From an uncultured Bacteroidales bacterium (GTDB lineage Bacteria > Bacteroidota > Bacteroidia > Bacteroidales > VadinHA17), in assembly GCA_963791065.1 (NCBI GenBank), contig CAWBQN010000001.1, forward strand, positions 3,756 to 67,755: a stretch of 64,000 bases of DNA, written 5' to 3'. Shown here piece by piece: positions 6,225-33,624 of the stretch. Under the pieces are notes generated by a model, which saw nothing but the letters and a program-made list of their open reading frames with translations, made no database searches and had not been told where the DNA came from. Every line of letters begins with the position of its first letter. Position 1 is the first letter of the stretch. Both the position numbers and the translations under genes were made by a program.

Positions 6225-6246
6225 AAATATTTTTTACTTTTGCATT

Positions 6247-6969
6247 ATGAATCTTATAGTTGACATAGGAAATACCAGTACAAAACTCGCGGTCTTTGAT
6301 GGTAAGACAAAGCTGTCTCAAGCCCGGATCGATGAATTGACCTGTGAAGAGATTGAGAAGGACCTGAGCGGATTAAAGATACAAAAAGCTATTGTCTCAA
6401 CTGTCAGAAGGCTATCTCCGCTGATATCCGAGCTTTTCTTTTCCAATATCCCGCTCGTTCATGTACTTTCATATAAATCGCTGCTGCCTTTCAAAATTGA
6501 TTATGACACTCCGGAGACACTGGGACCGGATCGCATAGCAGCAGTAGCAGGAGCTTTCAATATGTTTCCGGGCGAGGAGGTACTTGTGATTGATGCCGGC
6601 ACTGCTATTACATTTGATTTTCTCTCGGGCTCAGTGTATAAAGGAGGCAATATTTCTCCCGGTTTAACAATGAGATTCAAAGCCTTAAACAAATTTACAT
6701 CTAAATTACCGTTGATTTCATCAATTGAGAGCTTCACTTTTCCCGGGCGAAATACCACTGACGCAATATTGGCCGGAGTGATTACCGGGATCACTTATGA
6801 AATAAATGAGTATATTCGCACGTTTGAGAATAAACATGCTGATTTCAAAATTATACTTACAGGCGGGGACAGTGAATTTCTTAAGAACAAAATCAATTAT
6901 CATATTACATATATGCCTGATATTGTGATTGATGGTTTAAATTATATTCTGGAATACAATGCGAAATAA
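6247..6969 (+). CDS. coaX: type III pantothenate kinase
   Basis: 240 aa. MNLIVDIGNTSTKLAVF and GPDRIAAVAGA are typical CoaX/Baf motifs. Confidence 0.9.
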   Translation: MNLIVDIGNTSTKLAVFDGKTKLSQARIDELTCEEIEKDLSGLKIQKAIVSTVRRLSPLISELFFSNIPLVHVLSYKSLLPFKIDYDTPETLGPDRIAAVAGAFNMFPGEEVLVIDAGTAITFDFLSGSVYKGGNISPGLTMRFKALNKFTSKLPLISSIESFTFPGRNTTDAILAGVITGITYEINEYIRTFENKHADFKIILTGGDSEFLKNKINYHITYMPDIVIDGLNYILEYNAK

Positions 6970-8239: not shown

Positions 8240-8294
8240 GAATTTCCGAGGTTATGATAATTAATCTGACGGATAAGAATATCACCTGGATTAT

Positions 8295-8861
8295 ATGAGT
8301 AACTCTTCATTAAATTACAGAATCCACCCGGCTGCTATCGCATTACTTATTCTAAGCATGACTTTTCATTCTTGTGAAAGCAAGATGCCTGTCCTTCCAA
8401 AATCGGACCTGCTTACACTTCCTTCGCTTACTTCAAGGGACTTTACCACCGTTCTGGATGACTCAGGACGTGTTCAGCTAATTATGAGTTCACCTCTGCT
8501 TGAGCAATACGAAAAAGCAGATCCTCCGTATTCTGAATTCAGGGAGGGAATAAAGGTGGTGGTTTACAATGGCAAGGACACTCCGCAGGTAAGAGTTACT
8601 GCAAAATATGCCAAATGTACGAACAATAATCTGTGGGAACTCAGAGATAGTGTTGTGGTTGTTAATGAACAAAATGAAAAGCTTGAGACTGAACTTTTAT
8701 TCTGGAACCAGGAGAAAGATCTTATCTATACTGACAGGTTTGTTAAGATAACCACTGAAAATGAGGTGATGCAGGGAATAGGTTTCGAATCTGATTCCCA
8801 TCTGACTAAAAGAAAGATAAAGAAAGTCACTGCTGATATCTATCCACCGGATGAGAAATAG
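8295..8861 (+). CDS. lptC: LPS export periplasmic protein LptC-like
   Basis: 188 aa with an N-terminal anchor or lipobox (..TFHSC). The OstA/LptC-like beta-jellyroll sequence includes LFWNQEKDLIYTDRFVKITTEN. The coaX-barrel-lptC-hemolysin gene order is typical of Bacteroidota. Confidence 0.6.
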   Translation: MSNSSLNYRIHPAAIALLILSMTFHSCESKMPVLPKSDLLTLPSLTSRDFTTVLDDSGRVQLIMSSPLLEQYEKADPPYSEFREGIKVVVYNGKDTPQVRVTAKYAKCTNNNLWELRDSVVVVNEQNEKLETELLFWNQEKDLIYTDRFVKITTENEVMQGIGFESDSHLTKRKIKKVTADIYPPDEK

Positions 8862-9039
8862 CTCGCTGCTTGCTCTTGAAATTATCTGGATTGCTACAGG
8901 TATTCTTTGTATAGCTGCGGGAATCAGGTCCGCGATTATAAGCGGAAGCAGTAAAATCCCTATCTTTGCAGTAATGGCTCTGATCTGTTTCGTCTTCGCA
9001 TGGCTAAGACACCGGCAAAGGAAAAAGAGCCAGATTTGA
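8851..9039 (+). CDS. small two-TM membrane protein (hypothetical)
   Basis: 62 aa with two hydrophobic helices and a basic tail (RHRQRKKSQI). It fills the lptC-to-hemolysin gap and overlaps the lptC stop. Confidence 0.35.
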   Translation: MRNSSLLALEIIWIATGILCIAAGIRSAIISGSSKIPIFAVMALICFVFAWLRHRQRKKSQI

Positions 9040-9042
9040 TGT

Positions 9043-10302
9043 ATGAATGTTATTCTGATAATACTTCTTGCTATAATTTTGTCAGCTTTCTTTTCCGGTA
9101 TGGAAATCGCTTTTGTAGCGTCCAACAGATTGCGGATTGAACTTGACAGGAAACAGGGAGTATTTGGTTCAAGCATTATAAAATTATTCACAGACAATCC
9201 CGGTCAGTATATTGCAACAATGCTGATAGGGAATAATTTTTCACTGGTTATTTATGGTCTGGTTTTTTCTAAAATACTTGGAGCATTACTCACACCACTG
9301 CTGAACTCAGATCTTCTTGTACTTATAATAAACACGATCCTTTCAACTGCTATCATCCTGCTTGTAGCAGAGTTTCTGCCCAAGACAATTTTCATTATCT
9401 CACCTAATTTTTTCCTAAAGTTTCTGAGTGTACCTACTTTGATCTTCTTCTTCCTGTTTTACCCGGTAAGCAAATTTACACTCGCAGCTTCAAATCTTTT
9501 CATCAGGATATTTTTCAAAATTAAACCGGGAGAAAAAAAACAGGAGAATCTTGTTTTCAGCAAGGTCGATCTCGACCATTTTGTTAACCTCAGCAGTCAG
9601 AGTAAAGAGGAATCGGAGCCTGATCATCGTGATATCAGGATATTCCAGAATGCCCTTGATTTTTCAAATGTAAAACTAAGAGAGTGCATGATCCCAAGGA
9701 CTGAAATCGAGGCGGTTGAGCTCGGAACTTCTGTGGCGCAGCTGAAAGAGAAATTCGTCGAAACCAGACTTTCCAGGATACTTATTTACCAGGATACAAT
9801 TGACAATATTAGCGGTTATTTTGAACTGAAAGATATCTTCAGAAATCCTTCAGATATAAAATCTATGATACGGAAGCTCGCAATTGTACCTGAAACGATG
9901 CCAGCCAATAAACTCCTCAAGCTTTTCGTGGATGAGAAAAAGAATATTGCGCTTGTGGTGGATGAATTCGGAGGAACATCAGGTATGGTAACCATAGAGG
10001 ATGTTCTGGAAGAGATAGTGGGTGATATCGAAGACGAACACGATACCACTGACCTGGTTGAGAAGAGTACCGGTGTTAACGAATATATTCTTTCCGGACG
10101 TTTCGAGATTGATTACCTTAATGAAAAATATCACCTCAATCTGCCTGAGGCTGATGATTATGAAACACTTGCCGGCATGATTCTTTTTTATCATGGCAGT
10201 ATCCCCGTAAACAATGATGTCATCCGGATCAACAATATCACAATCAAAGTTCTAAAGGCTTCAACTACAAGGCTTGAGCTGGTGAATCTGAAAATAGAAT
10301 AA
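9043..10302 (+). CDS. CNNM/DUF21-CBS-CorC_HlyC hemolysin-family protein (GldE-like)
   Basis: 419 aa with four N-terminal TM helices and a CBS pair (ECMIPRTEIEAVE..). The CorC/HlyC C-terminal domain includes DEFGGTSGMVTIEDVLEEIVGDIEDEHD. Confidence 0.85.
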   Translation: MNVILIILLAIILSAFFSGMEIAFVASNRLRIELDRKQGVFGSSIIKLFTDNPGQYIATMLIGNNFSLVIYGLVFSKILGALLTPLLNSDLLVLIINTILSTAIILLVAEFLPKTIFIISPNFFLKFLSVPTLIFFFLFYPVSKFTLAASNLFIRIFFKIKPGEKKQENLVFSKVDLDHFVNLSSQSKEESEPDHRDIRIFQNALDFSNVKLRECMIPRTEIEAVELGTSVAQLKEKFVETRLSRILIYQDTIDNISGYFELKDIFRNPSDIKSMIRKLAIVPETMPANKLLKLFVDEKKNIALVVDEFGGTSGMVTIEDVLEEIVGDIEDEHDTTDLVEKSTGVNEYILSGRFEIDYLNEKYHLNLPEADDYETLAGMILFYHGSIPVNNDVIRINNITIKVLKASTTRLELVNLKIE

Positions 10303-10385
10303 AAAGACCATTACATCCAAACACCAGAATAATTTTAGTGCTAATTCATCCAGTAAGGAATCCTGTCAAATATTGATTTTTAAAA

Positions 10386-10416
10386 ACAAAGGCAACCCTG
10401 ATTGGGTTGCCTTTGT
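10386..10416. terminator. rho-independent terminator hairpin (best on the minus strand)
   Basis: ACAAAGGCAACCC-TGATT-GGGTTGCCTTTGT. On the minus strand it is followed by TTTTTAAAAA. It lies between the convergent hemolysin gene and the last PUL1 gene. Confidence 0.65.
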
Positions 10417-10481
10417 TGTAAAGCTTATTAAAATTGGTTATTGCTTAGTGTGAGGTCCAGTCTCAGCAACATTCGTCAATA

Positions 10482-11153
10482 TTAGACACTATTCTGGTAT
10501 ACAATATAGTGACCAACCATTGTACCTGTTGTTGGATCAATCGTTCCTGATTCAATTGCCTGACATCCTCCTCTAAATGAGTAAGTGGCATGGAGTAGGT
10601 ATTCGCTGTAAAATCAAGCGTGAAAAGTCCCGAGCCAACCGAATCCCAATAATTATCAATTTCCAGTATATTAGCACTGGCCTTGGAAAGGTAACATGAT
10701 AGACCGTGAAGTCTTCAGCTGGTTCAAGGCCGAAAATCTCCTACGAAAGATTCCTATTGGTTCAAAGACGGTAAAACTCCAGGTCGGACCGAATGTTCTT
10801 ATACCGTTAGCATCTGTCATCGTCACATGCCAATAATAAGTCACTCCGGGCACAACGGGAACGTTAAGAGTGAGGGCGCTTAAGCCTGCTGAATAAAGGG
10901 GAGGTGTTGCAGAAGTCCCAAAATACACATCCGCAATAATAGGATCGCTGTCAGCGTTTGTTGATTCCCAGGTTAAATCGACAGTTGTTCCGGTAGTATG
11001 AATAGTAGCTTCATTCTCAGGAGCTACGACAACTGGTTCTGTGAAAGCATAGAAAGCTTTGAATGGTACCGGTGCTTCTTTCTTACAACTTTGCAGTGCA
11101 ATCATGCCTGTCAGAACAAACAATGTTGCTAAGAATATAATTTTTCTTTTCAT
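10482..11153 (-). pseudogene. PUL-associated surface lipoprotein, 3' third broken by frameshifts
   Basis: The ORF 10671..11153 has a lipobox (ALQSC) and an Ig/FN3-like sequence. After ..WSFTVFEP the track frame turns into junk. Manual translation continues in other frames (EPAEDFTVYHVTF, then SANILEIDNYWDSVGSGLFTLDFTANTYSMPLTHL, then GGCQAIESGTIDPTTGTMVGHYIVYQNSV*) to a stop at 10482-10484. Confidence 0.6.
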
Positions 11154-11181
11154 AATTTATTTTTTTAATTAGATCAAAAGG

Positions 11182-12033
11182 TTATTGTCTTACTAAGACC
11201 TCATGAATTTCTCTATTTCCGCCAGCACCTTCATAGTAATAGTTAACAGTAAAGGTTTTGGTAGCAGGATCATATGCATTTATCCAACCTGAACCAACCT
11301 TTAACGGCTGTGTTGAACTCTCTGCGCCAGAAATCGTAACCGTATTATCATCGTTTATAGTAAAAACAACCTTATAATCGCCCTGATCACCCAGATCACC
11401 TATAGTTGTCGAAACAGATTTGCAGTCTTCTGTTTTCAGCTCTTTAATCTCATCAATTACTCTTACACCAGCGGTTGGATGAACAAATGTTCCTGTTGAG
11501 TGATATGTCCCCTGATAAGGGTTAGATATTGGCAATACCATAAGCCGTGATCCCTGGCCGATAGGATCGGCTGGAATTACACCACCAGTTGCGTCAACAA
11601 TTGAAATAGGAGCCATGAACTGATCACATGCGTTCAACGTTTGAGCATTCCAGATAGTGACATAAGCATACGCGTTTCTTGTTCCGGCCTTAATCAAAAT
11701 GCTGGGAGTCCGAATGAAGATATTGGGGTACAACTTATAACTTGTTTTGTTTAGTCTGTTATATCCGGCTCTGGCTGAGTCATTTACTGCTAAAGTAAGT
11801 GTTATATCCTGGGTTGGAACCTTGTCAGTAGCAATATTGACCATGAACTTGAATGTAACAGAATCGGGAACCGGCAGCAGAGGAAAGGTAGCCTTTCCCC
11901 CATTCCATACCTCGGCATACATTTTTCCTTTAAGGGAATCGGTCCAATCTATCCCGACTTTATCTTTCAGGCAGGAATTAAAAAGAAGAGTCGCTGCGAG
12001 AAAGGATACTATTATTAAGATATTTTTTCTCAT
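11182..12033 (-). CDS. PUL surface lipoprotein (DUF1735-like N-terminal domain)
   Basis: 283 aa with a lipobox (LFNSC). It lies directly downstream of the SusD-like gene. The VTFKFMVNIA..ITLTLAVND..AGYNRLN..YKLYP pattern resembles DUF1735. Confidence 0.65.
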   Translation of the reverse strand: MRKNILIIVSFLAATLLFNSCLKDKVGIDWTDSLKGKMYAEVWNGGKATFPLLPVPDSVTFKFMVNIATDKVPTQDITLTLAVNDSARAGYNRLNKTSYKLYPNIFIRTPSILIKAGTRNAYAYVTIWNAQTLNACDQFMAPISIVDATGGVIPADPIGQGSRLMVLPISNPYQGTYHSTGTFVHPTAGVRVIDEIKELKTEDCKSVSTTIGDLGDQGDYKVVFTINDDNTVTISGAESSTQPLKVGSGWINAYDPATKTFTVNYYYEGAGGNREIHEVLVRQ

Positions 12034-12077
12034 ATTTTTTGATTTAAAATCGTTTGTAATTTATGGCACATTCAATG

Positions 12078-13610
12078 TTAACGTGACTGCCAGAAAATCT
12101 TTTTGGTAAACAAATCATCAGTAGTCGAAACATTCTGGAGAATCACATTATCGTTGTTTGTGCTAATCTCAGTCTGTGGATAAAGCAGTCTTACGGGAGG
12201 TGTTGCATTCTTCTTCAAATTATCCTCTGTAAAATGAATTCCTGTACCATCAGGGAAGCCCGCTCTTCTGTAGTCTGTCCAGACTGTCATTGGGCTAAGT
12301 CCGTCTAACGCACACCATTTCTGAGTAAGTATAATCCTCAGTTTATTTGAGGCAGCATCAAAATTAACCATAGGTAACGTAGTTTGTGCCAGATAAGCAA
12401 CAGCGTCAGCTTCTGTTAAGGGCGTATAAGTTGAAGCATCCAAAGCAGATTTTTGGCCTTCATACAGAATTGAGGCTGTCACGGCAGCTTCATATAATGC
12501 TTTTGGATCTCCTGTGATTAATCCTCTCTGGGCAGCTTCAGCCTGGATGAAAAGACTTTCGATATCAGTCAGAATAGGTGAATCCTGATTGTACGCCCTC
12601 AACATTCCCGGCCCAATTTGAGATGCAGTACCGGCCTGTGTTAGTGTATTAGCACCAAAATAACTTCCTAAGATAGTCGTACCGGAAGAAGCCCGAAAGA
12701 ACCTGAGTTTACGCGGGTCATTATTGTTGATCAGAAAATTACATGCATCCTGTCCCGCAGCATAATAATTAAGTCCATCAGCTTGTTGTGAGCCATCCTG
12801 CTTGTAAAAACGTTCCCAGAATGGGTTCATTTTACCAGCTGACTGTAAATATCCCGGGTTAAGCCATGCACCTTCACCTGCACCGATATATCCAACAGAA
12901 GCAGTTTGGGAAATTTCACCGGCAATATAAGAAGTTCTACCTGACATATCTGATTGATTTATCAGCATTCTGAGTTTTAGCGTATTGGCAAATTTTGCCC
13001 ATGCTGTCATATCACCATTGTAAATAATATCCTTAGCTCCAACTGCCTCAGCGGTAGCCGAAGTAGTGGCTATTAAGTTCATTGCTGTGTCGAGTTGAAC
13101 AACGAGGTCCTCATAGATTGCCTGTTGATCATCGTACTTGGGTTTCAGAATACCCTTATCAGCCTTCAGAGCCTCAGAATACGGAACATTACCATAAGCG
13201 TCTACAAGGTTCTGATAAACATAAGCTTTCATAATCTTGGCAATTGCCCTGAAGGATCTTTGTTTTGGATCGGTAGATGATTTTTCGATATAATCATAGT
13301 TCTGCAGGTTAGTATAAGCGCTGCTCCAGTTACCCTGGAAGTGTGTATTAAGCAGGTTATATTGTGTCATACTTGCATCCTGGGCGTAACCAGCACTTAT
13401 TGACCATAAGCCATACCATTCATAAACGAATGCATAATTGCCGGGAGTATTCATAAGTATAGAAGTATAATTGAGAGCTGCCGGCAAGATAAAACTTGCA
13501 GGGACAGCTGACGCATTGTTAGGGTTTACTTCGTCTACGCTAAGAAAATCTTTTTTGCAGGCGCTCCCTAAAACAAGCAGGGCAGTTAATAATATAAATA
13601 GTTTCTTCAT
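12078..13610 (-). CDS. SusD/RagB-family nutrient-binding lipoprotein
   Basis: 510 aa with a lipobox (LGSAC) and a TPR-like SusD sequence. It lies immediately downstream of the SusC-like gene. Confidence 0.9.
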   Translation of the reverse strand: MKKLFILLTALLVLGSACKKDFLSVDEVNPNNASAVPASFILPAALNYTSILMNTPGNYAFVYEWYGLWSISAGYAQDASMTQYNLLNTHFQGNWSSAYTNLQNYDYIEKSSTDPKQRSFRAIAKIMKAYVYQNLVDAYGNVPYSEALKADKGILKPKYDDQQAIYEDLVVQLDTAMNLIATTSATAEAVGAKDIIYNGDMTAWAKFANTLKLRMLINQSDMSGRTSYIAGEISQTASVGYIGAGEGAWLNPGYLQSAGKMNPFWERFYKQDGSQQADGLNYYAAGQDACNFLINNNDPRKLRFFRASSGTTILGSYFGANTLTQAGTASQIGPGMLRAYNQDSPILTDIESLFIQAEAAQRGLITGDPKALYEAAVTASILYEGQKSALDASTYTPLTEADAVAYLAQTTLPMVNFDAASNKLRIILTQKWCALDGLSPMTVWTDYRRAGFPDGTGIHFTEDNLKKNATPPVRLLYPQTEISTNNDNVILQNVSTTDDLFTKKIFWQSR

Positions 13611-19123: not shown

Positions 19124-20841
19124 TTAATGTATATCATAAAACACCTTAAATGTTCCCGGATCTTTCTGAGCCGGCGCATTTGGATTGATACTCAAATCCG
19201 AAGTAGGCCATACTACGGTCCAGGGAACCGGATTTGTAAGTGTCACAGGAATTACAAATCCATCTGGAGAAATAACCTCTCCACCTGGAGCCTGAGTCTG
19301 ATCTAATGGATTAAATACAATAGGATACCCTGTTCTGCGATGATCTGTCCAGGTATCAACATTGCATCCAAATTGTGAAATCCACTTTTCAGTCATAATT
19401 AATTCAAGCTGCCTGTCTGTAGACCCAGCAGTATATAATGCCATTACGTCGGTAATGTATTGTTGAACAAGCCATCCGGTAGTTGCTGCAGCCGGTGGAA
19501 CCGGAGCAGTGGCTGTTGGGTCCCACATCGAAGCTGGAGTAGCCTGTGTAATCTGTGCTGTCGACGGAGCAACTTTCGAAACAACATGATCTACTTGCTT
19601 AAAAGAGGCTTCCAGTGCCTGTTGAAAATAAGCAGGAGCAACATCAGGTATAAGACCGACATTTGCCAACTCAGCCTGAATGTATAATCTGTCAGCATAG
19701 GTTATGAAGCGATATGGAGCGCTGACCGGTTCCGTGAGGTCCGGTAACTTTAACATGGCCACCATCGTCGTAACGGCCCCCAACAGGATAAACACCAAAA
19801 ACTGACATGGAACCATCAGTGGCATGATCGCGGTTTTTACTTATCGAACCAAAGAAGATACTTACAAATCCGCCATCGCGGTATTCGGTAGGATTACCTT
19901 CACGTGTAGACTGAGTGGCAGACAACTGATTGTAATAATAATATGGGATACGGGGATCTTTTATGCCGGTAAATATTTCGGGGTTTTGTCCTTTTAAAAT
20001 CCGGAACATCCATGGGCTCATATAATAGGATCTCTGTCCTGCTTCATAGTCGAGGTAGCCAGGATTTCTTTCATCAGGACTTGATTTGAATCCATATTGA
20101 AATTCAAAATCTTCTCCGCTTTGAATCAGATCGCCCTCTGCAACCAGTGCAGCTACTTCAGCAGACACATCCTGAACCAGACGTACCTGGTTATAAAGCT
20201 TTAATTTAATTGTATTGGCTGCACGGATCCATTTTGCCTTATTGCCGGCATAGATTATATCCTCACCTGCCGGAACAACCTTGTTTAGTGCCGTGGTATT
20301 GTTCAGATCAGCCAAACCATCGTCAAACATCGCAAAAATTTGAGGATAGATGTCTGCGCTTTTATCCCATTTTGGATAAGCAACCTTAGATGAAGATGAT
20401 AATTTATTTGCCTCAGAAAATGGAATATCACCCCAGATGTCAACCATCTGACTAAATGTATATGCTTTTAATATTTTAGCTATACCTGAGTAGGTAACAT
20501 TCTCATCGGCTTCGGCCTGACTGATCATAAGTTCAAGGTCCTGTAAAGGTCCAGTATAAAGGAAAGTCCCAGGGACTAGCTGTATAGTATGAACTCCCGG
20601 TTATACCATATTGGTCAGGGTTTTCACGCGTAGTCACCTGGTGCATATAAACAGCTGTGATATTTGTTAAACCGCCATTTACACTTAATCCGTCTGCTAT
20701 ACTTTTTTCAACATGAGTCAGTAACAAACCCAGTGTAGCTTTTGATGGATTATTTGGATCTGTGTTTATATCCAGAAAATTTTTTGTACATCCTGCTAAC
20801 AGTACTATTAGTGCTAACAGTAATTTTTTATATTTTTCCAT
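19124..20841 (-). pseudogene. SusD/RagB-family gene split by at least 2 frameshifts
   Basis: Three consecutive, overlapping ORFs (20533..20841 with lipobox LLAGC, 19692..20528, 19124..19825) together reconstruct one SusD-like protein. Confidence 0.8.
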
Positions 20842-20879
20842 ATTTATCTTATTTATATTATTAGACTTTTAGATAGAGA

Positions 20880-23800
20880 CTAGAATGTAATTTTTAAATT
20901 CACACCAAATCTTCTTGAAGTAGGCGCACACGAAAGATCGATACCCTGTACATTACTTGAACCATAATTATTAATCTCAGGATCGAAATTCGTATGAGTA
21001 GGAACATTGGGAGCAAAATACCATAAATTACGGCCTGTTACACTAATGTTGATTCTGCCAATTTTTGCTTTTTGTATCCATTTTTTTGGAAGATCATATC
21101 CAATAGAGACTTCTCTTAAACGATAAACAGTAGCATCATATATGTTAAATTCAGCGGCTGAATTTATAGCAAAAGTAGTTTCAGTACCTCCACCATAAAA
21201 ATATAAATCATTTGTAGTAATCCCTGTACGGTTTGCAATTGGATTCCCATTACCATCCAGCAGAAGGTCTCCCTGGGCATTTCCATAAACACCTGGAATT
21301 ATCCAGCTATGTTCCCTGTCTTCGGTATCTTTGGTAACGCCCCTGCCTAATAAAGAAGCAATAGTCACACTGTAGACGTCCCCACCTTGTCTCCAATCCC
21401 ATAAAGCACTCAGAGTAAACCCTTTATATGAGATAGTATTTGTTATACCCATAATGAAATCGGGATTTGGATCACCGATAATTTTCTCATCCGGCAGCTA
21501 AATAAGGGAATCCGGTAACCGGATCAATAATCATATTGACCGTTATGCATCTCTTAAAGCATAGCTACCTCTGAAAGATCCATAGCCATAACCGGGTTCA
21601 ATAACCGGAGTAACACCAGATTCCCAAATCAGCCAGGTTAAGCCTTTCAACTCCCTGATATTAAGGATACTACTTCACTTTTATTTTTTGTAAAAGAGGT
21701 GTAAATTTCCCATTTTAAGCCACTGGGTAATTGGAGAGGAACCAGGTTTAAACCAATTTCAATACCTTTGTTTCTCATTGATCCAAAATTCAGATACCTG
21801 ATAATAATAACCCACTTGCACTTGGTACTGGAACAGGAGCAATCATATCATTTGAAAGTTTATTATACCAGGTAAAATCTAACCCAATGCGTCCATTAAA
21901 AACTGAAGTTCAGTACCTAATTCAGTTTCAGCGGATCTTTCAGGTTTCAAGACTCGGGTTATTCCTGGGTATTGGGAGTAGTAAGTGTAAATTTCCCACC
22001 AAAAGGATCGCCAAGATAAAATACGTTTGTCAAGGAATAAGGATCTGCATCATTTCCTACCTGTGCATAGCTGGCACGGATTTTACCTAAACTTAATATA
22101 TCACTCTTTATCCCCAGAGCATCAGTAAAAATGAAAGAAGTACTGACTGCAGGATAGAAATAACTTCTGTTTGATACCGGAAGAGTTGATGACCAGTCAT
22201 TACGTCCAACAAGGTTCAGGATATAACCAGTTCTTATAAGAAAGGGAAATATCAGCAAAAACAGCATATAACCGTCTTTGTGTGAAATACCACCGAGCTA
22301 ATGGTACCAGATCTCTTGTATTGGTGATATTATAAATTCCGGGAACCATGATTACCTTGCCATCGTAAGCCTGTCTTTTTGTTGTCCGCTGGTTCACATT
22401 ATGACCCAAAATAGCTTTTATACTGAAATCCTCACCTAACTGATGAGCAAGAGTTAACAATAAACTTGATTCAATTTCGCGCTTATTATAGTTATCTTCC
22501 TTGATTTCACCTGTCGTTGCAGCAGCTCTTGAACCAATATCAGTAACTTCCCTGCGGTTCAGCTGAATATTATTCATCCCTAAAGAATAAGAAAGGTTCA
22601 ACCAGCTGTTAAAGTTATAATCCATATTAATTCCGGCCACTGTTCTGTCGGTATTGGTTGTTATAGTATTATGTCTGTAAGACCATAATGGATTATCAAA
22701 CTGGTTGCCAAGAGCAGAAACGGGCCATCCATTTACCGGGATTTTCAAAAGGCAATTTCATATCCCAGTCTCTCCCTAAGAAAAGAGAACGGGCGAATGA
22801 AGAAGCAGCACCGGTAAACTGGTTTTCACCGAAGAACCCACCCACCTGCTTTGTACTGGAAAATGAAAGATTTCCACCAACATTAAGGCCATTATTAAGT
22901 TTACTTCTGCCCCCTACACTTACACTGTATCTGTCAAAGTTAGATTCGGGAATATAACCATCCTGGTTTAAAGCTGAAGCAGTTGAACTGAACGAATTTT
23001 TTGCATCGCCTCCTGAAATGGAAAGAGAGTTTTCATATATAGTACCTGTCTTGAATAAATCCTTGACGTTATTAGGTTGTGCCTGGTATTTCATATTACC
23101 CGATGAAGGAAATAATTTTGGAAATGCATTCAGGTAATCGGGCCATACAGGAATTGAATCCTGTGAATCAAAACGTGATCCCCATGAACCATTCGAGTTT
23201 GCATAGGTGAAATTGGATCCATTGCCGTATGTGTTCTGATAATCGGGCAAATTGGCAATAGTCTCTTTTGCTATTGATGTATTAACAGTAACTTCAAGAC
23301 CTCTTGTTCCTTCTCCGCCTTTTCCTGATTTTGTAGTAATAAGAAGTACCCCATTGGAGGCTCTTGATCCATACAAAGCAGCAGCAGCGGAACCTTTCAG
23401 TACTGTAAGGGTTTCAATGTTATTCGGATCTAATGTACTTAAGCCGCTGGAATAAGCACCCCCTGTACCGGTTGTTTGACTTGAGGTTGCAACCTGGTCA
23501 TTGCTGTAAGGTACACCATCAACAACAATCAGAGGTTGGTTATTACCAAAAAATGAGGAACTACCGCGGATAGTGATATTTGAAGCAGCTCCCGGAGCTC
23601 CCTGTCCAACACGGATATCAACACCAGGAACTTTCCCCTGCAATGCTTTCAGCATATCTGGTTCAGATTTTTCCTGTGTCTTATCGGCACTGACTGTGAC
23701 TACAGAATAGCCCACAGATTTTGCGGAACGCTGAATACCAACAGCTGTAACAACAACTTCATCCAAACCAAGAAGATCGGGTTCCATAGCAACATCAATT

Positions 23801-24076
23801 ACTTTTCGGCCCCGGATTTCAACTTCCTGTCTTTTCATCCCAATATAGGAGAAAATAAGGGTTGTAGCACTCTGTGGAGCCTCAAGTGAAAATTTTCCAT
23901 TCACATCTGTAATGCGCACCGAGAGTTGTGCCTTTAACAGTTATAGTTACCCCGGGAATTGCACCCTCCCCCTGAACAGAAGAGGTAACCGTACCTGTAA
24001 TGATTATTGTCTGCGCCATCAAAGTGAAACCACTTACAAACACAAACGAGACAATCAGCAGAATAAGTTTCTTCAT
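20880..24076 (-). pseudogene. SusC/RagA-family TonB-dependent transporter gene split by many frameshifts
   Basis: Fragments 23882..24076, 22696..23919, 22200..22748, 21959..22267 and 20880..21452 are collinear with the intact SusC paralog. Manual translation of 21453-21958 gives further in-order pieces (LKPERSAETELGTELQF, RIGLDFTWYNKLSNDMIAP, NFGSMRNKGIEIGLNLVP) in shifting frames. Confidence 0.85.
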
Positions 24077-26667: not shown

Positions 26668-26831
26668 ATATGAATTCTAAATAATGACTAAACAAAAATA
26701 AAGTACCCATGTTCCGGGTACAAAATCGGGGACAAATTTAGACAAAATTGCCAAATCAGGACAAAGATTGATTAAAAAGACCAATTAACAGGAATGTAGT
26801 CTGGAATATCCGAACTCTGGTCTCCCAACCG

Positions 26832-29800
26832 CTATTTATTACTTGATGTAATTGGTTCCGCTTTAATATTAAAACTCTTTTCCGGACATGCCTTTTCTTG
26901 GGGGATATCCTTACCAACATAATTATTCCACTCTTCCCGGGTCAGATTCCTGGAAACCAATTTGCAGATCCCCTGAACCAGGTAGTCCGCATGCGTGGGT
27001 CTGCCAAGTATGTCATTGCTCCCACCGGATTCTCCCGATATGATCATCTGGCCATCGGGACTGAATTGCATTACAATGACGATCCCTTCATAACCGGCCA
27101 TAGTGATGGGTGGTTCTGTCATATTAACCGGATCTTTTATATTGAATATCTTAATTTTCTTATCATTCCCCGAGATTGCCATCTGCTTTAATGTTGTATT
27201 AAACCGGATATCTTTAATTTCTGAACCGTCAGCATTGACTTCAGATATTTTTTTGTGAAGACTGATATCCCATAATTCGACTTTACCATTTGAATCACCC
27301 AAAGCCAGAAGGTTGTTTTCAGGATTGAATCTTACAACTCTGATGTTTTTACCGCTTGTCTCAATTCTGAAATTATCAGACGAATGGTCGGGATCCCAGA
27401 CAACAACATTGCCATCAGTGCTTATACCGGCAAGATAATTCCCTTTCGAGGAGAGGTCAATGGATGATATTTCCATTGACCCTGTCGCAACATTGATGCT
27501 CGTCCGGGCAGCGATATCCCACCTAAGCACTTTCCCGTCGAGTGCAGCTGAATAGAGAAATTTTCCGTCATATGAAAAGATGAGCGATTTGACGCCTCCC
27601 TTATGACCGGTCATTTCATATGCTGAATTATCACCTTTTAAAGGGATCATTCTGATAGTTGAGTTTGAACTTCCACAAGCAAGCCAGGAGGCATCGGGAC
27701 TGACTGCCAGAACCTCAATAATATCATTTCCTGAATAAATAACCTGAAAAGTCTGATCTTTTTTCTCAAGTGACCATTTAAGTACCTGTCCATCGTTTCC
27801 GGAAGTAAAAAATTCGTTTCTTCCGGGAACAAATGCAATACTTTTAATATCACCGTTATGTCCTTTAAAAGACTTAAAGGTTAGAGAACCATATTGTAAA
27901 GCAACATTGTACAGCCCAGCATAAATATCGGCATCATTATCCAATCCATTGTTATTTTTATTAAACAGGTATGCCTGATAGGCCAGGAGTGTCTGAAGAT
28001 CCTTCTGGCCCGCCATCTGCAAAGATCTGAGTGACATAGACTTCCCAATAGAAAGTAATCTCAGCCGCCTGTCTCCTTTGCTTTTTTCTTCGGCAAGGTC
28101 TTTTGACAGAAGTGCTTCATGGATATTTTTTTTTGCAATGGATTTTTCGTGGTCCGCTTCAATTTTCTGTTTTATTGCTGTCGCAGCAGCCTTTATCGCA
28201 TTTGCAGCTGTCGAATCTGAAACTGTCTTTTGCAGCATCGCTAGCTGTGATGTTGAATCAGCCCTGGCTTTCTCCTTAACTGCCTGATTTTTTTGACTTT
28301 CAGCAATAATGATTTTCTTTTCTGCAGATGACCTCTTAAAATGTTCCAACAGTACGAAGGCTAAAACTACAATAATTGCCATTCCGAGAAATCTGGTAAT
28401 CAACCTGGTCCTTTTCTGTTTCCTTTTCTCAAAGATGATTTTATTTTGTTCTTCTATATTATATGCTTTTTCGCTTGTACGAAGGTATACCATTGCCCTT
28501 TCGAATGCAGGATTGTATTGAACAGCCCAGGAGACCGTTGGTTTGTCTTTATCGCGCCATGCAAGTGCGTTCAACAGATCGGGGGGTCTGTACAGGCCAG
28601 TCTTTCCCTGCTGATAGAGCGCAGACGCTTCAGAAAGCCGCAAATATATCTGCATTGAAGAAGCTTCACTGTCTATCCATTCTTTCAGCCGGTCCCACAA
28701 AAAGATCAGACATTCGCTCTGAAGATCGATTATAGTCCTGTTATTCAGAACTTCGTCCTCTCCCGGGGTAATAAATGATCCTGGCCTTGCCCTGAACTTT
28801 TCAACCACATGTGTTAATTCATCTTCAGTGCATCCGGCAACCGATCTGATTGTTTCAATATCAGAAGGATGCCGTAAACCCTTATTGTCCAAACCTTTCC
28901 GGGTGATGGTTTTAAACATTATAGCACAGATCTCTTTTCCTCTCTGGTTTAATCCCTCATAAACCTCATTGGAATGGTATGTAACTGCATTCCTTATTGT
29001 ACCAGCTGCGTTGTAGTCCGTGCTGCTGACCACTTTCTCTTTGTCGTCAAGTTTATGCCAGTGTTCCCATGTCCTCATCATAGCATGCTGCAGTACCGGC
29101 AGCTTGCCTGACATGCCATTCAGGTCACTTATAATAGTCATTACGAGTTCAGGGTCAATTTTTGCCTTTGAAAAATTTACCGGACCCTCAATTACCTCCT
29201 TTAAACTTTCCGAACCCATTTCAGAAACCAGATAATTGCTGTTATTAATCAGCTTTGTCAGTCCCTTGTAATGCGAGCATTCTCCCAGGTATTCAGAACG
29301 CAGCGTAATAATTATGAAAACATTTTGTGCAGGGTTGATGATTGAGTTTATAATGAATTCAACAAATCTTTTTGCATTTGTACGGGAGCTATCAGAATCC
29401 CCGGGTAAAATATATCTGAAAAGTTCATCAAACTGATCGACTACCAGAAGAATATTGTCATCATGATTCGCCGTAATTTTCCTGGCAACATCAGAGAAAC
29501 CATCCGTACTGTCCGAAAGTAAATGTAAAATAATCTCTCTATCAGTGCTTTTATCGGCTGATTCTGATATTACTTTTGAGAAAGCTCCGGCCATGTTTCC
29601 GAAAGGGTCACTATCAGGATTGAATGAGAGGATCTTCCATGTTGAAGATTTGCCGTGTTTTAGATCCCTGATTTTCGGAAGTACTCCTGCATATATCAGG
29701 GATGATTTGCCGATTCCCGAGGTACCGATAACTGTGATATACCTGTTTTTCAGCAATTTTGTAATGATCTCATTACTTTCATTCTCTCTCCCGAAGAAGA

Positions 29801-29876
29801 GATTGCTGTCTTCGGGAGTAAAGGGCCTCAACCCCGGAAAAGGATTGAAATCTTTGATGTCTCTATTTGGTACCAT
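26832..29876 (-). CDS. STAND P-loop NTPase (nSTAND1-like) - TM helix - coiled coil - WD40 propeller protein
   Basis: 1014 aa. It has NPFPGLRPFTPEDSNLFFGRE, Walker A GTSGIGKSS, Walker B-like LLVVDQFDELF, and TLRSEYLGEC. One TM helix spans aa 492-512. Seven WD40 blades run from FKGHNGDIKSIAF to the tail NLTREEWNNYVG. Confidence 0.85.
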   Translation of the reverse strand: MVPNRDIKDFNPFPGLRPFTPEDSNLFFGRENESNEIITKLLKNRYITVIGTSGIGKSSLIYAGVLPKIRDLKHGKSSTWKILSFNPDSDPFGNMAGAFSKVISESADKSTDREIILHLLSDSTDGFSDVARKITANHDDNILLVVDQFDELFRYILPGDSDSSRTNAKRFVEFIINSIINPAQNVFIIITLRSEYLGECSHYKGLTKLINNSNYLVSEMGSESLKEVIEGPVNFSKAKIDPELVMTIISDLNGMSGKLPVLQHAMMRTWEHWHKLDDKEKVVSSTDYNAAGTIRNAVTYHSNEVYEGLNQRGKEICAIMFKTITRKGLDNKGLRHPSDIETIRSVAGCTEDELTHVVEKFRARPGSFITPGEDEVLNNRTIIDLQSECLIFLWDRLKEWIDSEASSMQIYLRLSEASALYQQGKTGLYRPPDLLNALAWRDKDKPTVSWAVQYNPAFERAMVYLRTSEKAYNIEEQNKIIFEKRKQKRTRLITRFLGMAIIVVLAFVLLEHFKRSSAEKKIIIAESQKNQAVKEKARADSTSQLAMLQKTVSDSTAANAIKAAATAIKQKIEADHEKSIAKKNIHEALLSKDLAEEKSKGDRRLRLLSIGKSMSLRSLQMAGQKDLQTLLAYQAYLFNKNNNGLDNDADIYAGLYNVALQYGSLTFKSFKGHNGDIKSIAFVPGRNEFFTSGNDGQVLKWSLEKKDQTFQVIYSGNDIIEVLAVSPDASWLACGSSNSTIRMIPLKGDNSAYEMTGHKGGVKSLIFSYDGKFLYSAALDGKVLRWDIAARTSINVATGSMEISSIDLSSKGNYLAGISTDGNVVVWDPDHSSDNFRIETSGKNIRVVRFNPENNLLALGDSNGKVELWDISLHKKISEVNADGSEIKDIRFNTTLKQMAISGNDKKIKIFNIKDPVNMTEPPITMAGYEGIVIVMQFSPDGQMIISGESGGSNDILGRPTHADYLVQGICKLVSRNLTREEWNNYVGKDIPQEKACPEKSFNIKAEPITSSNK

Positions 29877-30085
29877 AATCTTAACTGGAAATATGACGAG
29901 CGTCGCTTATTGTTCACTTGACTCGATAAATTTTAATATCTCATACGAATTATCGGGGTACTGAAAATGATATTCTTCAACTGCATCTAATGGCAAAAAG
30001 TAATAAGAAAGAGGGTGACTCAAATGTCCTTGCAAGCCCATCGATAACCCCATCATATGCTATATGTACTTCATTCCTCTGCCCG

Positions 30086-32947
30086 TTATCCATCCATGAC
30101 CCATATTATATGGCCCCCGGAGGATCCAGGGAAATCCCTTTCAAAATTTTTGCTGTACTGCATTTCGGAGGCAACCTGCAGCAGGTCATCCTCTGTAATA
30201 CCTCTGAGATATCTTGTCAGAAAGAGTAACTTTTCGAAGAGATATTCTTTTTTATCAGTCGTCCCGTTTACTATGTTATCGAGCCGCGTTTTCATTGAAT
30301 CCGGAATTCTCCCCGAAACCGAACTATACAACCCAGGATCTGTGCGTGCCATCAGGTTTGCAGCTTCTTCCTGAATTAATTCTTCCGGACTGAAAAGCAG
30401 GGCGGTTACAGATTCAGCCATATCGTTGCCTTCAATCTTGCTGATGCTCCTTAGCGTACAAGCTTTAGTCCATAAACTGAGCCGATTATAATCACAGTTA
30501 ATTATATCTTCAAGAAGCTTTTTCCGGGCCGGCACTTCCCCAGGGTATAAGTAAAAGAGCTCCTTTAGCCGATCTTCATCATACAAAACATTAAGGAGAG
30601 AAATCAATTTTGAGCGAATCGACTCTGACACAATCAGAGATGTCATTTCAACAGCATTGGTGAAACTTTCTTCAGTTTTCTTCTCAACATTCTCCCTTAT
30701 TCTTTCCATGACCCTGGAATCATATGTGAGTGAAAGCAAATCAAAAAGAAACTTGTACCACCTGTCTGTTTCCCGGATTATCTTTTCGAGAAGAAAATTA
30801 TCTTCATCCCTTTCAAATGCGACCCTGGCTGAAATATTCCACGCAATGATCCCGATAATATCGGAGATAAGTTGATGCAGGCGGTTCTTATCTTCCCCGG
30901 ATGGCCGGAACTTACAGTCAATAAGACATTTAATAGCAACCTCTTTTAACTGTCTTGAATTTGCCCATAGCCTGGAAAACAAGAATTCCATAGTCTCCTT
31001 TGTGCAGTTTTTGCCCAGGAGCCTGAGGACTATTTTGCTTAACCTGACATTTCCTGAGGTTTTAAGATAATATCTCATCAATACATTTTCAGAATAATTG
31101 CCAAAACTCTTAAGGACTTCGGCAGAATCATTTGCCAAACCAGGTACAATAAGGCATTCACATACTTCGGATAATAAATCACTTAACCTGAATTTCCCAA
31201 TCATGTAAATTGCCAGTCGCTTTGATTCGATCGATTTATCCCTTAAAAGTCTCAGGACCTCTGTTGTCTGAGGCATTCTGGTTCCTGCAAGCATCATTAT
31301 CGCATCATTGATCTTATCATCGCCATTATCCGAAGAAGCTGAATTCTTTTTAAGAAGCTCAACAACATCAGCAGAGTGTTGTCTGACTTCTTCATCCAGC
31401 CCTGAATTATTTGAAGCTTTTTTCAAAAATGGCAGAAGATTAATATCCTTCTTTGAATAGGCATAATCAATTACTTCTTCAAAATAAAACTTATTCGAAA
31501 CTGTACCCAGGACCGAATAATTACCTGAAATAAGACTGAAATAATCCGTTTTAAAATCGAGACGGGCAGAAAACCTGTTATTCAGGGCATTCTGTTTTTT
31601 TGGTCTGTCAATTGACGATACATCCGGAATATCCGTTTCAGTTACTTTTAAAATGGAATTCCTGTACTCTATGAATAATCTGAAAGCTGTTACTATCCAA
31701 ATTATTGAAATTATTAAAAGAATTATTGAGAAATGAACAATTTTAATGAATCCAAACAGGCCAGGAATTATCAGAATAATCCCCGAGATCAACATGGCAG
31801 TTTCATTGAAGGTGCCATTCATTACCGATTGCAGGCCAAGACTCAATTCCTCCTTTATTGACTGATAAAAGACTTTAAATGAAGCGATTTCCATAGAATC
31901 CTTCAATGACTTTGAGAAAATCCTGCTAAGGGCCAGAAGAACGAAGAATATTAAAAATCCGCCTGATGCAACAGGTGTATTACCCGTGATTAGTCCGCTT
32001 ATAACTGCCAGTGCAGTGATCAATGCAATAAGTAACGGAGGGATCAGGAGGCAATACCGAAGTCCGTAGTTACGCATAACGAATGGATAACCAACCAGTT
32101 TAAAAAACAAAAGGATGATCATCATGCCTCCGGTCAAAAAGCCAAGAAAGCCTGCCATATCCTCCGCTACAGGATATTCTACCCTTGTAACTGCCATAAA
32201 TGAATATTGTATGAAAAAGACAGCTAAGACGGAAAGACCGGCAAATATAACCAGCATTCTTATTAAAGGATCTTTTCGTAAATGAACGAGTTGAGTTATC
32301 GCTTTGTCAGGCTCTTCAGGAAAACCATCGTTCTCAATTTCAGACAGGCCGGATCTTGTAAGTGTCAGGCGCTGAATAACTGCTGCAACTAAAACAGAGG
32401 AAGCACTAATCAGTAAGAGATCGCGGGATTGTAATTTAAATATCATCAGGACAGGTACAACAAAAGAAATTATCATTATTCCGCTGATAAGACCAATATC
32501 AGGGAGCCGGAAGATTTTATTCTCATGTTGCCCCGCTGCCAGCCTGTCTGTTGTTCCCCGAAATACTGACAGCATCATAAAATTGAGTGGTCCCAGCAAA
32601 ATAAAAACCAGGAATGTCATCCATTTTTGCGGTGAGAATATCAGGAGGCACCAGAGGAAAAAAGTAACCACTCCTGCTATCATAAGATTAAGGAATGCAA
32701 GGTTACTGAAATGTATTATTCTCTGAAGCCTTGAATAAAGTAATGTGATTAAAATGCCGGCAAAACCGGAAACCATATATCCGCGTGCCATCATCTTTTC
32801 ATCAAAAGTCGTGAGTAACAAAGAGTGGGCGGTTATGTCAAAAGCTCCGATAAAAATCCCAAGGAAAACCGATTGTGTCAGAAGCATTGATATCATTGAC
32901 CCCTCGCCTGATCGAGTTTGAGGGAGAGTACGTAACTTATCTCTCAT
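30086..32947 (-). CDS. polytopic membrane protein (MFS/nucleotide-transporter-like, about 12 TM) fused to HEAT/ARM-like repeats; the C-terminal module appears frameshifted
   Basis: 953 aa. The N-terminal 440 aa are TM-rich (..SVFLGIFIGAFDITAHSLLL..). The C-terminal 500 aa are an alpha-helical repeat. The last 50 aa look like the start of a cNMP-binding-type domain, which continues out of frame to 29907. Confidence 0.7.
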   Translation of the reverse strand: MRDKLRTLPQTRSGEGSMISMLLTQSVFLGIFIGAFDITAHSLLLTTFDEKMMARGYMVSGFAGILITLLYSRLQRIIHFSNLAFLNLMIAGVVTFFLWCLLIFSPQKWMTFLVFILLGPLNFMMLSVFRGTTDRLAAGQHENKIFRLPDIGLISGIMIISFVVPVLMIFKLQSRDLLLISASSVLVAAVIQRLTLTRSGLSEIENDGFPEEPDKAITQLVHLRKDPLIRMLVIFAGLSVLAVFFIQYSFMAVTRVEYPVAEDMAGFLGFLTGGMMIILLFFKLVGYPFVMRNYGLRYCLLIPPLLIALITALAVISGLITGNTPVASGGFLIFFVLLALSRIFSKSLKDSMEIASFKVFYQSIKEELSLGLQSVMNGTFNETAMLISGIILIIPGLFGFIKIVHFSIILLIISIIWIVTAFRLFIEYRNSILKVTETDIPDVSSIDRPKKQNALNNRFSARLDFKTDYFSLISGNYSVLGTVSNKFYFEEVIDYAYSKKDINLLPFLKKASNNSGLDEEVRQHSADVVELLKKNSASSDNGDDKINDAIMMLAGTRMPQTTEVLRLLRDKSIESKRLAIYMIGKFRLSDLLSEVCECLIVPGLANDSAEVLKSFGNYSENVLMRYYLKTSGNVRLSKIVLRLLGKNCTKETMEFLFSRLWANSRQLKEVAIKCLIDCKFRPSGEDKNRLHQLISDIIGIIAWNISARVAFERDEDNFLLEKIIRETDRWYKFLFDLLSLTYDSRVMERIRENVEKKTEESFTNAVEMTSLIVSESIRSKLISLLNVLYDEDRLKELFYLYPGEVPARKKLLEDIINCDYNRLSLWTKACTLRSISKIEGNDMAESVTALLFSPEELIQEEAANLMARTDPGLYSSVSGRIPDSMKTRLDNIVNGTTDKKEYLFEKLLFLTRYLRGITEDDLLQVASEMQYSKNFERDFPGSSGGHIIWVMDG

Positions 32948-33097: not shown

Positions 33098-33624
33098 TCA
33101 GATGTTTAGCCTGGATTTAACAAGAGAAACTAACAGGTTGATATCAAGATCAATTCCCTGAATGATTATGTCGGACCTGTCGTACCATTTTTCGCGATCC
33201 CTAAGCTTTTCCTCAATGAAATCAATGAGGTTCTTTTCATCTAAATCTTTTATTAATGGTCTTTTGCCTTTTGAATCTGAAAGCCGGCTCCTAGCTCAGC
33301 CGGTGTAAGCTTAAGGTACAGGGTAAGCCCCGTCTTAAGCATGAAATTCATATTGTCGCTGTGGCACGGTGTACCGCCACCGGTAGAAATAACCGTGTCT
33401 GACCCGGTTTTCAGGTTTCTGAGCAGCTTAGTTTCAATTTCGCGGAAATAATTCTCACCATCCTGCGAAAAAATTTCCGGGATGGTTTTTCCGGTATGTT
33501 CTTCAATTTTTTTATCAAGGTCGATAAATGACCAGCCTATATGAGAAGCAATCTTTTTTCCTGCGGTTGATTTTCCGCTCCCCATAAAGCCGATTATGTA
33601 TAAAATATGGTTCCGGGCTGTCAT
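33098..33624 (-). pseudogene. aroK: shikimate kinase interrupted by a 1-nt frameshift near 33292
   Basis: ORF 33253..33624 has IIGFMGSGKST and ISTGGG, then loses the frame after LKLTPAEL. The adjacent frame continues as SRLSDSKGKRPLIKDLDEKNLIDFIEEKLRDREKWYDRSD... to a stop at 33098-33100. Confidence 0.8.

Follow-up and report, generated by a model that had tools for sequence, protein, structure and literature searches.

The stretch of DNA analysed here (the window) comprises 64,000 nucleotides (nt) of contig CAWBQN010000001.1 from an uncultured Bacteroidales bacterium and carries a gene for a STAND protein of 1014 amino acids (aa). We read this protein, with a probability of about one half, as a receptor-type switch that spans the membrane once, exposes a WD40 propeller to the periplasm and forms an obligate pair with the product of the gene directly upstream, a membrane protein combining a nucleotide-transporter (NTT)-like domain with a HEAT solenoid; its topology, its contact with the partner, the direction of signalling and the ligand are what we infer rather than observe. 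An earlier note, made from the letters of the window, had proposed a transmembrane (TM) STAND signalling or defence module. Our analyses favour the signalling side of that proposal and disfavour defence, given the lack of any meaningful match in the PADLOC database, a fixed chromosomal slot, purifying selection and a conserved propeller.

The open reading frame (ORF) described in the earlier note is real and lies on the minus strand, on which that note was silent; all motifs it had named occur in the translation at the residues it gave, and chance is ruled out as the source of the ORF, domain and hydropathy or helix features of the protein. Pfam assigns the N-terminal part to the nSTAND1 family PF20703 with a score of 273.9 bits (cut-off 27.1, E=4.4e-81), aa 12-424 covering profile positions 1-374 of 379. 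Because the Pfam match covers these residues, the sequence NPFPGLRPF...FFGRE, previously set apart as a leader and indeed present (aa 11-31 read NPFPGLRPFTPEDSNLFFGRE), is the first motif of the nSTAND1 domain and not a separate element. In the Walker A motif, G51, G54, G56, K57 and S59 are invariant across 32 orthologues, and the pattern GxxxxGK[ST] is found at about residue 50 in all of the 120 best homologues; in the Walker B block, D147, Q148 and F153 are invariant in the same 32 orthologues, the family consensus being DQFEELF. The blocks TLRSEYLGEC and LPVLQHAMMRTW are both present, and the protein ends with the tail NLTREEWNNYVG.

An AlphaFold2 (AF2) model is well resolved over the NTPase, with a per-residue confidence (pLDDT) of ~80-90 for aa 30-500, and its best matches in the PDB, as found by Foldseek, are full-length Apaf-1 or apoptosome chains (E~1e-17), with WD40 propellers next. 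Profile search and structure prediction thus both recover the STAND fold, in agreement with the nSTAND1-type assignment proposed from the motifs. Compared with the PDB by sequence, the NTPase gave spurious P-loop matches only and no solved structure was matched, and an NCBIfam search with the STAND and partner proteins of the window returned nothing useful. None of the best 120 homologues is truncated (1005-1040 aa, 57-91% identity), and those bearing organism names come from metagenome-assembled genomes (MAGs) of Bacteroidales or Bacteroidia. By its sequence the protein itself is a recognisable nSTAND1 member, and a cultured relative is already entered at NCBI as 'nSTAND1 domain-containing NTPase'; some homologues bear the older label 'High-affinity carbon uptake protein Hat/HatR', which was set aside as propagated annotation.

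What sets the protein apart from a textbook STAND receptor is a hydrophobic segment between the NTPase and the propeller. The hydropathy profile shows one peak only, at aa 490-515 (Kyte-Doolittle 2.66), and a hydrophobic segment occurs at the matching position (~residue 490) in 120 of 120 orthologues, its sequence varying while its hydrophobicity and the preceding cluster of lysines and arginines (K/R) are kept. The same holds further afield: in a survey in which aa 1-480 were searched against 1.84 billion representatives, yielding 43,393 clusters at E<=1e-3, a hydrophobic segment lies 380-560 residues past Walker A in 146 of the 150 nearest 50%-identity representatives, which were the ones inspected. 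The window protein has seven K/R in the 15 residues before the segment versus four in the 15 residues after it, and in the 146 representatives K+R averages 6.4 ahead of it compared with 3.1 behind it. The AF2 model places the segment within one continuous helix (aa 458-537), outside the NTPase core. The single TM helix that the earlier note had read between NTPase and WD40 region is thus well founded, and its being a buried core helix, the obvious objection, does not agree with its position in a long solvent-exposed helix. The conserved helix and the positive-inside bias suggest that the NTPase is most likely cytoplasmic and the propeller outside, in the periplasm, of what would be an inner-membrane protein, the arrangement that the note had envisaged.

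The alternative, that the segment does not span the membrane and the protein resides entirely in the cytosol as an Apaf-1-like STAND, would suit the canonical cytosolic location of STAND/NLR proteins. It is nevertheless highly improbable, as the segment is ~22-25 residues long with a hydropathy of 2.7, retains its position and hydrophobicity though its sequence is free to vary (37% identity), carries the K/R cluster on one flank only and belongs to a long solvent-exposed helix instead of a domain core; moreover, the operon partners are membrane, periplasmic or outer-membrane (OM) proteins.

Beyond the predicted membrane helix, the AF2 model continues with long helices (458-537, 557-620, 625-641 and 649-662), and lysine, glutamate, alanine and glutamine together make up 49% of aa 513-605, in keeping with the K/E/A-rich coiled coil of about 90 aa noted before. 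Pfam WD40 and beta-propeller models span about aa 660-955, and a family profile aligns aa 667-956 with one seven-bladed propeller of 2ymu (E=9e-44), which agrees with the count of seven blades made from the sequence. The propeller is the most conserved large region of the protein: across the 32 orthologues, identity to the window protein amounts to 75% in the propeller and 82% in the pre-propeller helices, compared with 57-60% in the NTPase, 42% in the stalk and 37% in the TM segment, and the juxtamembrane segment ranks as the second most conserved region with 70%. The ratios of non-synonymous to synonymous substitution rates (dN/dS) between the window and its closest relative, the MAG-derived locus L001, follow a similar course, rising from 0.06 in the juxtamembrane segment through 0.10 in the propeller and 0.25 in the NTPase to 0.42 in the TM helix plus stalk (STAND gene as a whole 0.18, partner 0.33, ParE 0.003). 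Conservation of the putative sensor points to a conserved endogenous ligand or partner.

The ORF of the upstream gene as listed (30086-32947) encodes 953 aa, compared with 1014 aa in intact homologues; by hydropathy its product has about 12 TM helices, and its C-terminal half is soluble. The partner protein of the window matches no Pfam family at E<=0.01, including TLC (PF03219), and none in NCBIfam or PADLOC; among its homologues, only one carries a precomputed PF03219 tag, some show weak HEAT_2 matches, and JGI uses the name 'ATP:ADP antiporter / ATP/ADP translocase'. A profile of the partner family, in turn, matches the solved NTT1 carriers over profile positions 122-442 (AtNTT1, E=3.6e-11; Chlamydia NTT1, E=2.7e-10). 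The AF2 model of an intact homologue (pLDDT 75) has 12 helices followed by an alpha-solenoid (aa 458-928) and, at the C-terminus, a small alpha/beta domain, and its best Foldseek matches are the NTT1 structures 9j3l, 9j3m and 9j3n, with TM-scores of 0.62-0.68 on the target (0.68 for 9j3l, the top match), followed by other members of the major facilitator superfamily (MFS). Profile and predicted fold together identify the partner as a homologue of the NTT/TLC nucleotide transporters, with transport activity only predicted. It resembles plastid AtNTT1 and Chlamydia NTT1 in profile and in the 12-helix fold, but the identity is only ~16%, no Pfam TLC match of the protein in the window exceeds the threshold, and the partner adds a HEAT solenoid of ~470 aa and the small C-terminal domain.

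Several lines of evidence tie the two genes together. The block permease-ParE-ParC-AroK-partner-STAND-iPGM-DUF3109 is syntenic in loci L001-L005 and L009, and in distant Bacteroidales (L006, L007, L008 and L010; 30-44% identity) the partner still lies at most 4 kb from the STAND gene despite a differing wider neighbourhood. A metagenome scan anchored on the partner gene gave 80 loci, in which the partner is followed by the STAND gene (27 loci) or by a gene for a HAMP-PP2C protein (44 loci), the other nine ending at a contig edge; where the loci of the latter, longer type have more than 2.7 kb of flank, the STAND gene follows past the PP2C gene in 29 of 29. Pairwise distances of the STAND and partner proteins correlate with r=0.95, each correlates with those of ParC at 0.56-0.62 only, and the partial correlation given ParC is 0.92, a value reached by none of 2000 permutations. 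The slot between ParE-ParC-AroK and iPGM-DUF3109 is kept in dozens of genome and metagenome loci. Conservation of the neighbourhood, which the earlier note had proposed as a check, is therefore evident from both the genome synteny and the partner-anchored loci, and its description of a non-island, housekeeping setting is apt, the slot being fixed in more than 80 loci. The STAND gene and its partner are, as far as comparison of these loci can tell, a vertically inherited obligate two-gene unit, translationally coupled in intact relatives.

Tight coupling to the upstream gene, another point of the earlier note, is not apparent from the listed ORFs, as the stop of the partner at 30086 lies 209 nt ahead of the STAND ATG; in intact relatives, however, the two genes overlap by 1 nt (L002) or are 29 nt apart (L005). 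The reading frame of the partner is broken twice after codon ~949, its last ~61 codons being out of frame, and homology runs on in frames -2 and -3 to ~29910, ~30 nt from the STAND ATG (tblastn). An alignment at the DNA level confirms this continuation and reveals a 5-nt deletion compared with L001. The apparent gap is thus an artefact of the frameshifted 3' end of the partner, and we dropped it as an argument against coupling.

Frame disruptions relative to intact homologues occur elsewhere in the window as well, the affected regions being 29907-30100, 33101-33624 and 19124-24076; they include one break in shikimate kinase (175 aa when intact), at least four in a SusC-like gene, and SusD-like fragments. 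No break affects ParC, iPGM or the STAND gene, and a single ORF of 614 aa encodes ParE. Because several genes of the window are broken and L001 is broken at other positions, an indel-prone assembly is suggested, and the frame breaks are most likely assembly indels rather than real pseudogenes. The two breaks in the last ~61 codons of the partner, including the 5-nt deletion, might otherwise be taken to mean that the system is decaying in this genome, with the C-terminal domain of the partner lost, four accessory genes (for the PP2C, barrel, lipoprotein and cargo proteins described below) gone from the window and the STAND ORF a functionless relic. We consider this very unlikely: the STAND ORF retains its full length and its Walker motifs and has a dN/dS of 0.18 against the closest relative, the breaks in shikimate kinase and the SusC-like gene and the different ones in L001 fit indels of assembly, and both genes are intact in the two-gene clade, which is old and diversified.

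The accessory genes belong to a longer form of the operon found in relatives. There the order is partner, HAMP-PP2C, STAND, an OM beta-barrel (~345 aa), a beta-propeller lipoprotein (~417 aa) and a giant cargo of the type IX secretion system (T9SS), a repeat protein of 1838 to more than 3000 aa with a Por_Secre_tail domain. Such loci include L094 (4824-23096), L095 (2814-23063), L006 (4878-20986) and many of L029-L092, and the cultured species Perlabentimonas gracilis (GCA_011174675.1) possesses the full cluster. Loci from Tenuifilaceae and Rikenellaceae have an additional protein of ~425 aa encoded directly upstream of the STAND gene and related to the DUF4062 region of a TIR+DUF4062 protein from Acidobacteria (E=1e-17); DUF4062 is a domain that we take to be TIR-like. 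The best NCBIfam match of the long-form PP2C is SiaA, at 250 bits and hence below the equivalog cut-off of 700. The PP2C shares with SiaA of the SiaABCD system the succession TM, periplasmic domain, TM, HAMP and PP2C, but no SiaB, SiaC or SiaD genes were seen in the long-form loci, and the PP2C gene itself is absent from the window. An identification of the OM barrel as PorP/SprF was rejected, as neither Pfam nor NCBIfam backs it. As a whole, the long form looks like an undescribed envelope or surface-sensing operon.

No homologue of the long-form accessory proteins (HAMP-PP2C, DUF4062-like protein, OM barrel, lipoprotein and T9SS cargo) was detected by tblastn in the 64-kb window, and the idea that a 'missing' effector is encoded elsewhere in these 64 kb was dropped after that result. 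In a neighbour-joining tree the short form makes up one main clade nested in the diversity of the long form, L091 being a separate clean short form. A further locus, L071, which belongs to the long clade, has an intact STAND gene flanked by a PP2C remnant of 220 aa (6261-6923) and a T9SS cargo remnant (10808-11572), with no tblastn match for the barrel or lipoprotein genes, and thus appears to have been caught mid-reduction. Reduction has accordingly occurred at least three times independently (main short clade, L091 and L071), with the partner and STAND pair alone kept each time. This phylogenetic evidence makes the long form, an envelope operon of six to seven genes, the ancestral state, of which two genes are left in the window.

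It could be argued from this history that the STAND protein serves a structural or regulatory purpose within a trans-envelope machine reserved for the giant T9SS surface protein, which would secrete or anchor that protein or sense contact by way of the OM barrel and lipoprotein, and that the two-gene form is what remained, in a secondary role, once the cargo had been lost. The long form is indeed ancestral; the order STAND, OM barrel, propeller lipoprotein and T9SS cargo is conserved across families where the flank permits; the OM barrels have in common a conserved stretch of ~100 aa at the N-terminus, which could face the propeller in the periplasm; and the PP2C resembles SiaA, a regulator of biofilm formation and aggregation. 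Because the barrel, lipoprotein and cargo genes were lost at least three times independently and the pair outlasted each loss, the function of the pair cannot depend on them, and it is still under purifying selection after those losses; in addition, neither NCBIfam nor Pfam recognises the barrel as PorP/SprF. We therefore rate this explanation as rather unlikely.

The gene just downstream of the STAND gene encodes a small OM barrel in L006 and L007 and a TonB-dependent-receptor-like protein in L008; these three products share an N-terminal region of ~100-120 aa after the signal peptide (13137-13505, 13052-13432 and 13093-13490, respectively), a region on which the propeller might dock in the periplasm.

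Two features that the earlier note had regarded as unusual turn out to be ordinary in the wider subclade. The window protein truly lacks an N-terminal effector, as its nSTAND1 domain begins at residue 12, but so do 149 of the 150 nearest representatives (35-58% identity), in which Walker A lies within the first 100 residues; likewise, the TM helix between NTPase and sensor is real but shared by 146 of the 150. With such frequencies, both features are the rule in the subclade and not an oddity. An equivalent helix exists also outside the phylum, in an nSTAND1-TM-TPR protein of Acidobacteria (L011) and in a TIR-nSTAND1-TM-WD40 protein of Lentzea (L012, 9590-13654). To judge from the survey, an effector-less nSTAND1 module followed by a TM helix and a repeat sensor is a very large architecture. 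Relatives display three effector states, namely a fused TIR (L012), a separate TIR/DUF4062 gene upstream (L011, L007 and L010) and neither, which makes the earlier suggestion of an output supplied in trans plausible. In L011 a separate TIR_2+DUF4062 gene (8212-10005) directly precedes the effector-less nSTAND1-TM-TPR gene (9875-12838), which is followed by genes for an OM barrel and a multi-TM spermidine-synthase-like/TPR protein; a DUF4062-related gene sits directly upstream of the STAND gene also in L007, L010 and L095.

These relatives bring up the possibility of an abortive-infection or anti-invader sensor, whose propeller would detect an invader cue in the envelope, whose NTPase would oligomerise and whose NTT-like partner would be the effector and might, for instance, leak nucleotides or damage the membrane. 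The nSTAND1 family was defined in predicted conflict systems with TIR, caspase or effector-associated domain (EAD) N-termini (PMC8195603) and figures in the literature as an NTPase of conflict systems, accompanied by effectors or EADs (PMC8195603; PMC10907252). Besides the TIR fusion in L012, the TIR+DUF4062 gene next to the L011 protein and the DUF4062-related genes in the same position in L007, L010 and L095, this explanation could draw on the fact that the two proteins evolve much faster than the products of the flanking housekeeping genes (70% identity between L002 and the window for STAND and 61% for the partner, compared with 94-96%). Nonetheless, we deem it unlikely. A PADLOC-DB v2 search with the STAND protein gave only a match of its WD40 region to HEAT-ARM_XIII (1e-13) and a marginal coiled-coil match, and with the partner nothing; the pair occupies a fixed chromosomal slot and is inherited vertically in more than 80 loci without mobile or defence neighbours; the supposed sensor is the most conserved region (dN/dS 0.10), the opposite of what an arms race leads one to expect; the TIR-like gene has been lost from the lineage of the window; and the partner, a genuine homologue of transporters, is no known toxin. 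A conserved sensor, a fixed core-genome slot and the lack of a defence-model match together argue against an arms-race immune receptor. The pair instead looks like a conserved envelope-signalling unit, a typical phage-defence role being less likely.

As for how a membrane-spanning receptor paired with an NTT-like protein might work, the conserved propeller would bind a conserved component of the envelope or a conserved partner, and the signal would pass through a helical stalk of roughly 110-150 residues, between propeller and TM helix, and through the TM helix itself to the NTPase, altering its nucleotide state or oligomerisation. Output could then go to the partner, by engaging its HEAT domain, which is large and predicted to be cytoplasmic, and/or by gating its transporter domain. 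The longer operon from which the pair descends also codes for a HAMP-PP2C phosphatase resembling SiaA, an OM barrel, a lipoprotein with a propeller and the giant surface protein secreted by the T9SS.

Several points weigh against this interpretation. The topology is derived from hydropathy and the positive-inside rule only, and the propeller part of the AF2 model is of low confidence (pLDDT ~50-70, pTM 0.47). To place the sensor in the periplasm is an extrapolation, given that STAND NTPases canonically act as receptors in the cytosol. The last ~61 codons of the partner are out of frame, and if this is real, the pair may be impaired in the window. The correlation between STAND and partner distances may be inflated by the short/long clade structure, which the slowly evolving ParC misses. 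Finally, the fused or adjacent TIR/DUF4062 domains of relatives show that conflict-type members occur in the wider subclade, which lends an immune role some probability.

Comparison with known systems helps to delimit what may be new here. The window protein has in common with the nSTAND1 conflict systems described by Kaur, Iyer, Burroughs & Aravind (2021, eLife) the NTPase module, the Walker A motif, the DQFxE block and a C-terminal repeat 'sensor'. Those systems have N-terminal effectors or EADs, FGS or lectin sensors and mobile conflict contexts (PMC8195603), whereas the window protein lacks an effector, has a TM helix after the NTPase and a highly conserved propeller, and is encoded at a locus fixed in the core chromosome with an obligate NTT-like/HEAT partner. 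The likeness to Apaf-1 and other AP-ATPase-WD40 proteins extends over the full length, a STAND NTPase being followed by a WD40 propeller (3shf, 3j2t and 5juy; E~1e-17). Apaf-1, however, is a soluble protein of the cytosol that senses cytochrome c and combines a CARD effector adaptor at the N-terminus with two propellers, whereas the window protein has no CARD and bears a TM helix and stalk before a single propeller; the domain arrangement differs and the global TM-score is accordingly low (~0.2). Avs and bNACHT or other bacterial NLR-like antiviral STANDs share the STAND NTPase and a C-terminal sensor, and relatives of the window protein have a fused or adjacent TIR, but these systems are cytosolic, effector-bearing, located in defence islands and equipped with divergent sensors, none of which holds for the window protein. 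The closest parallel in topological logic is offered by receptors with a kinase, a TM helix and periplasmic WD40 or TPR repeats, known in Planctomycetota (PMC11032199), and by PknB-type bitopic kinases, in which a cytoplasmic signalling domain is joined by a single span to a periplasmic input array; in the window protein the cytoplasmic module is a STAND switch ATPase, and its output is presumably oligomerisation or partner recruitment, not phosphorylation. In the literature searched we found no description of a membrane-spanning nSTAND1 subclade, of an NTT-like/HEAT partner, of core-genome behaviour or of the larger envelope operon, and a search for membrane-spanning STAND/NLR proteins yielded nothing directly relevant.

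A more far-reaching version, possible though doubtful, would have a transmembrane NLR-like receptor read an extracytoplasmic cue through its periplasmic WD40 propeller and control its nucleotide-transporter-like partner, the pair representing a domesticated core-genome branch of a very large class, as yet undescribed, of membrane-spanning nSTAND1 proteins, which has further branches that bear TIR effectors and perhaps function as periplasm-sensing immune receptors.

Coordinates of the features of the STAND gene, its partner and their downstream border are collected in table 1. The terminator-like hairpin before iPGM weakly fits a bicistronic unit; terminator-like sites in the region are not above chance in total, and the position alone is suggestive. 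A sigma-70 promoter scan was set aside, as promoters of Bacteroidota differ from sigma-70.

Table 1. Position of the genes, domains and motifs discussed (numbering of the window).
Feature	Position	Strand	Description	Basis
STAND gene	26832..29876	minus	1014-aa nSTAND1-TM-stalk-WD40 protein, ATG start, intact ORF	ORF list and translation
nSTAND1 NTPase module	28605..29843	minus	aa 12-424, predicted cytoplasmic	Pfam PF20703
Walker A	29700..29726	minus	GTSGIGKSS, aa 51-59	read from sequence
Walker B block	29418..29450	minus	LLVVDQFDELF, aa 143-153	read from sequence
Juxtamembrane helical segment	28410..28604	minus	aa 425-489, conserved, K/R cluster at end	
TM helix	28332..28409	minus	aa ~490-515, single, predicted	hydropathy
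Stalk and pre-propeller helices	27882..28331	minus	aa 516-665, helical, K/E/A-rich	AF2, composition
WD40 propeller	26997..27881	minus	aa 666-960, seven-bladed, predicted periplasmic	Pfam WD40/beta-propeller families
Partner gene	29907..32947	minus	NTT/TLC-like 12-TM domain, HEAT solenoid and small C-terminal domain	
Partner membrane domain	31634..32911	minus	aa ~13-438, 12-helix, MFS/NTT-like	hydropathy, AF2, Foldseek, profile
Partner solenoid	30164..31576	minus	aa ~458-928, all-alpha, HEAT/ARM-like	AF2 pLDDT ~85-90
Terminator-like hairpin and T-tract	26703..26721	minus	between STAND stop and iPGM start	pattern scan

With regard to the surroundings of the pair, the order ParE-ParC-AroK is a stable syntenic block in the lineage, and the start of shikimate kinase overlaps the ParC stop at 33621-33624 of the window, the same ParC-AroK junction being found in L002 (6263-6266). 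In L093, a short-form locus on a 4.99-Mb contig, an IS1595-family transposase gene (5791-6741) is inserted between shikimate kinase and the partner. A Vut_1 gene, for putative vitamin or queuosine-precursor uptake, adjoins the partner in L007 (2682-3470), L010 (2688-3479), L095 (2814-3584) and L006 (3962-4744), and may be a further conserved neighbour.

STAND/NLR ATPases are treated as cytosolic proteins, yet our analysis points to a very large, unstudied subclade with the sensor beyond a membrane helix, the helix being present in 146 of the 150 nearest 50%-identity clusters of a family that runs to tens of thousands of clusters. In one lineage of Bacteroidales, such a STAND protein is locked to a nucleotide-transporter homologue, the two forming a conserved pair that co-evolves. 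If the predicted topology and pairing are true, the STAND signalling principle would extend to envelope sensing, and a 'WD40 repeat protein' family that is widespread but has no assigned function would become tractable, with Perlabentimonas gracilis, holding the full operon, as a cultured carrier.

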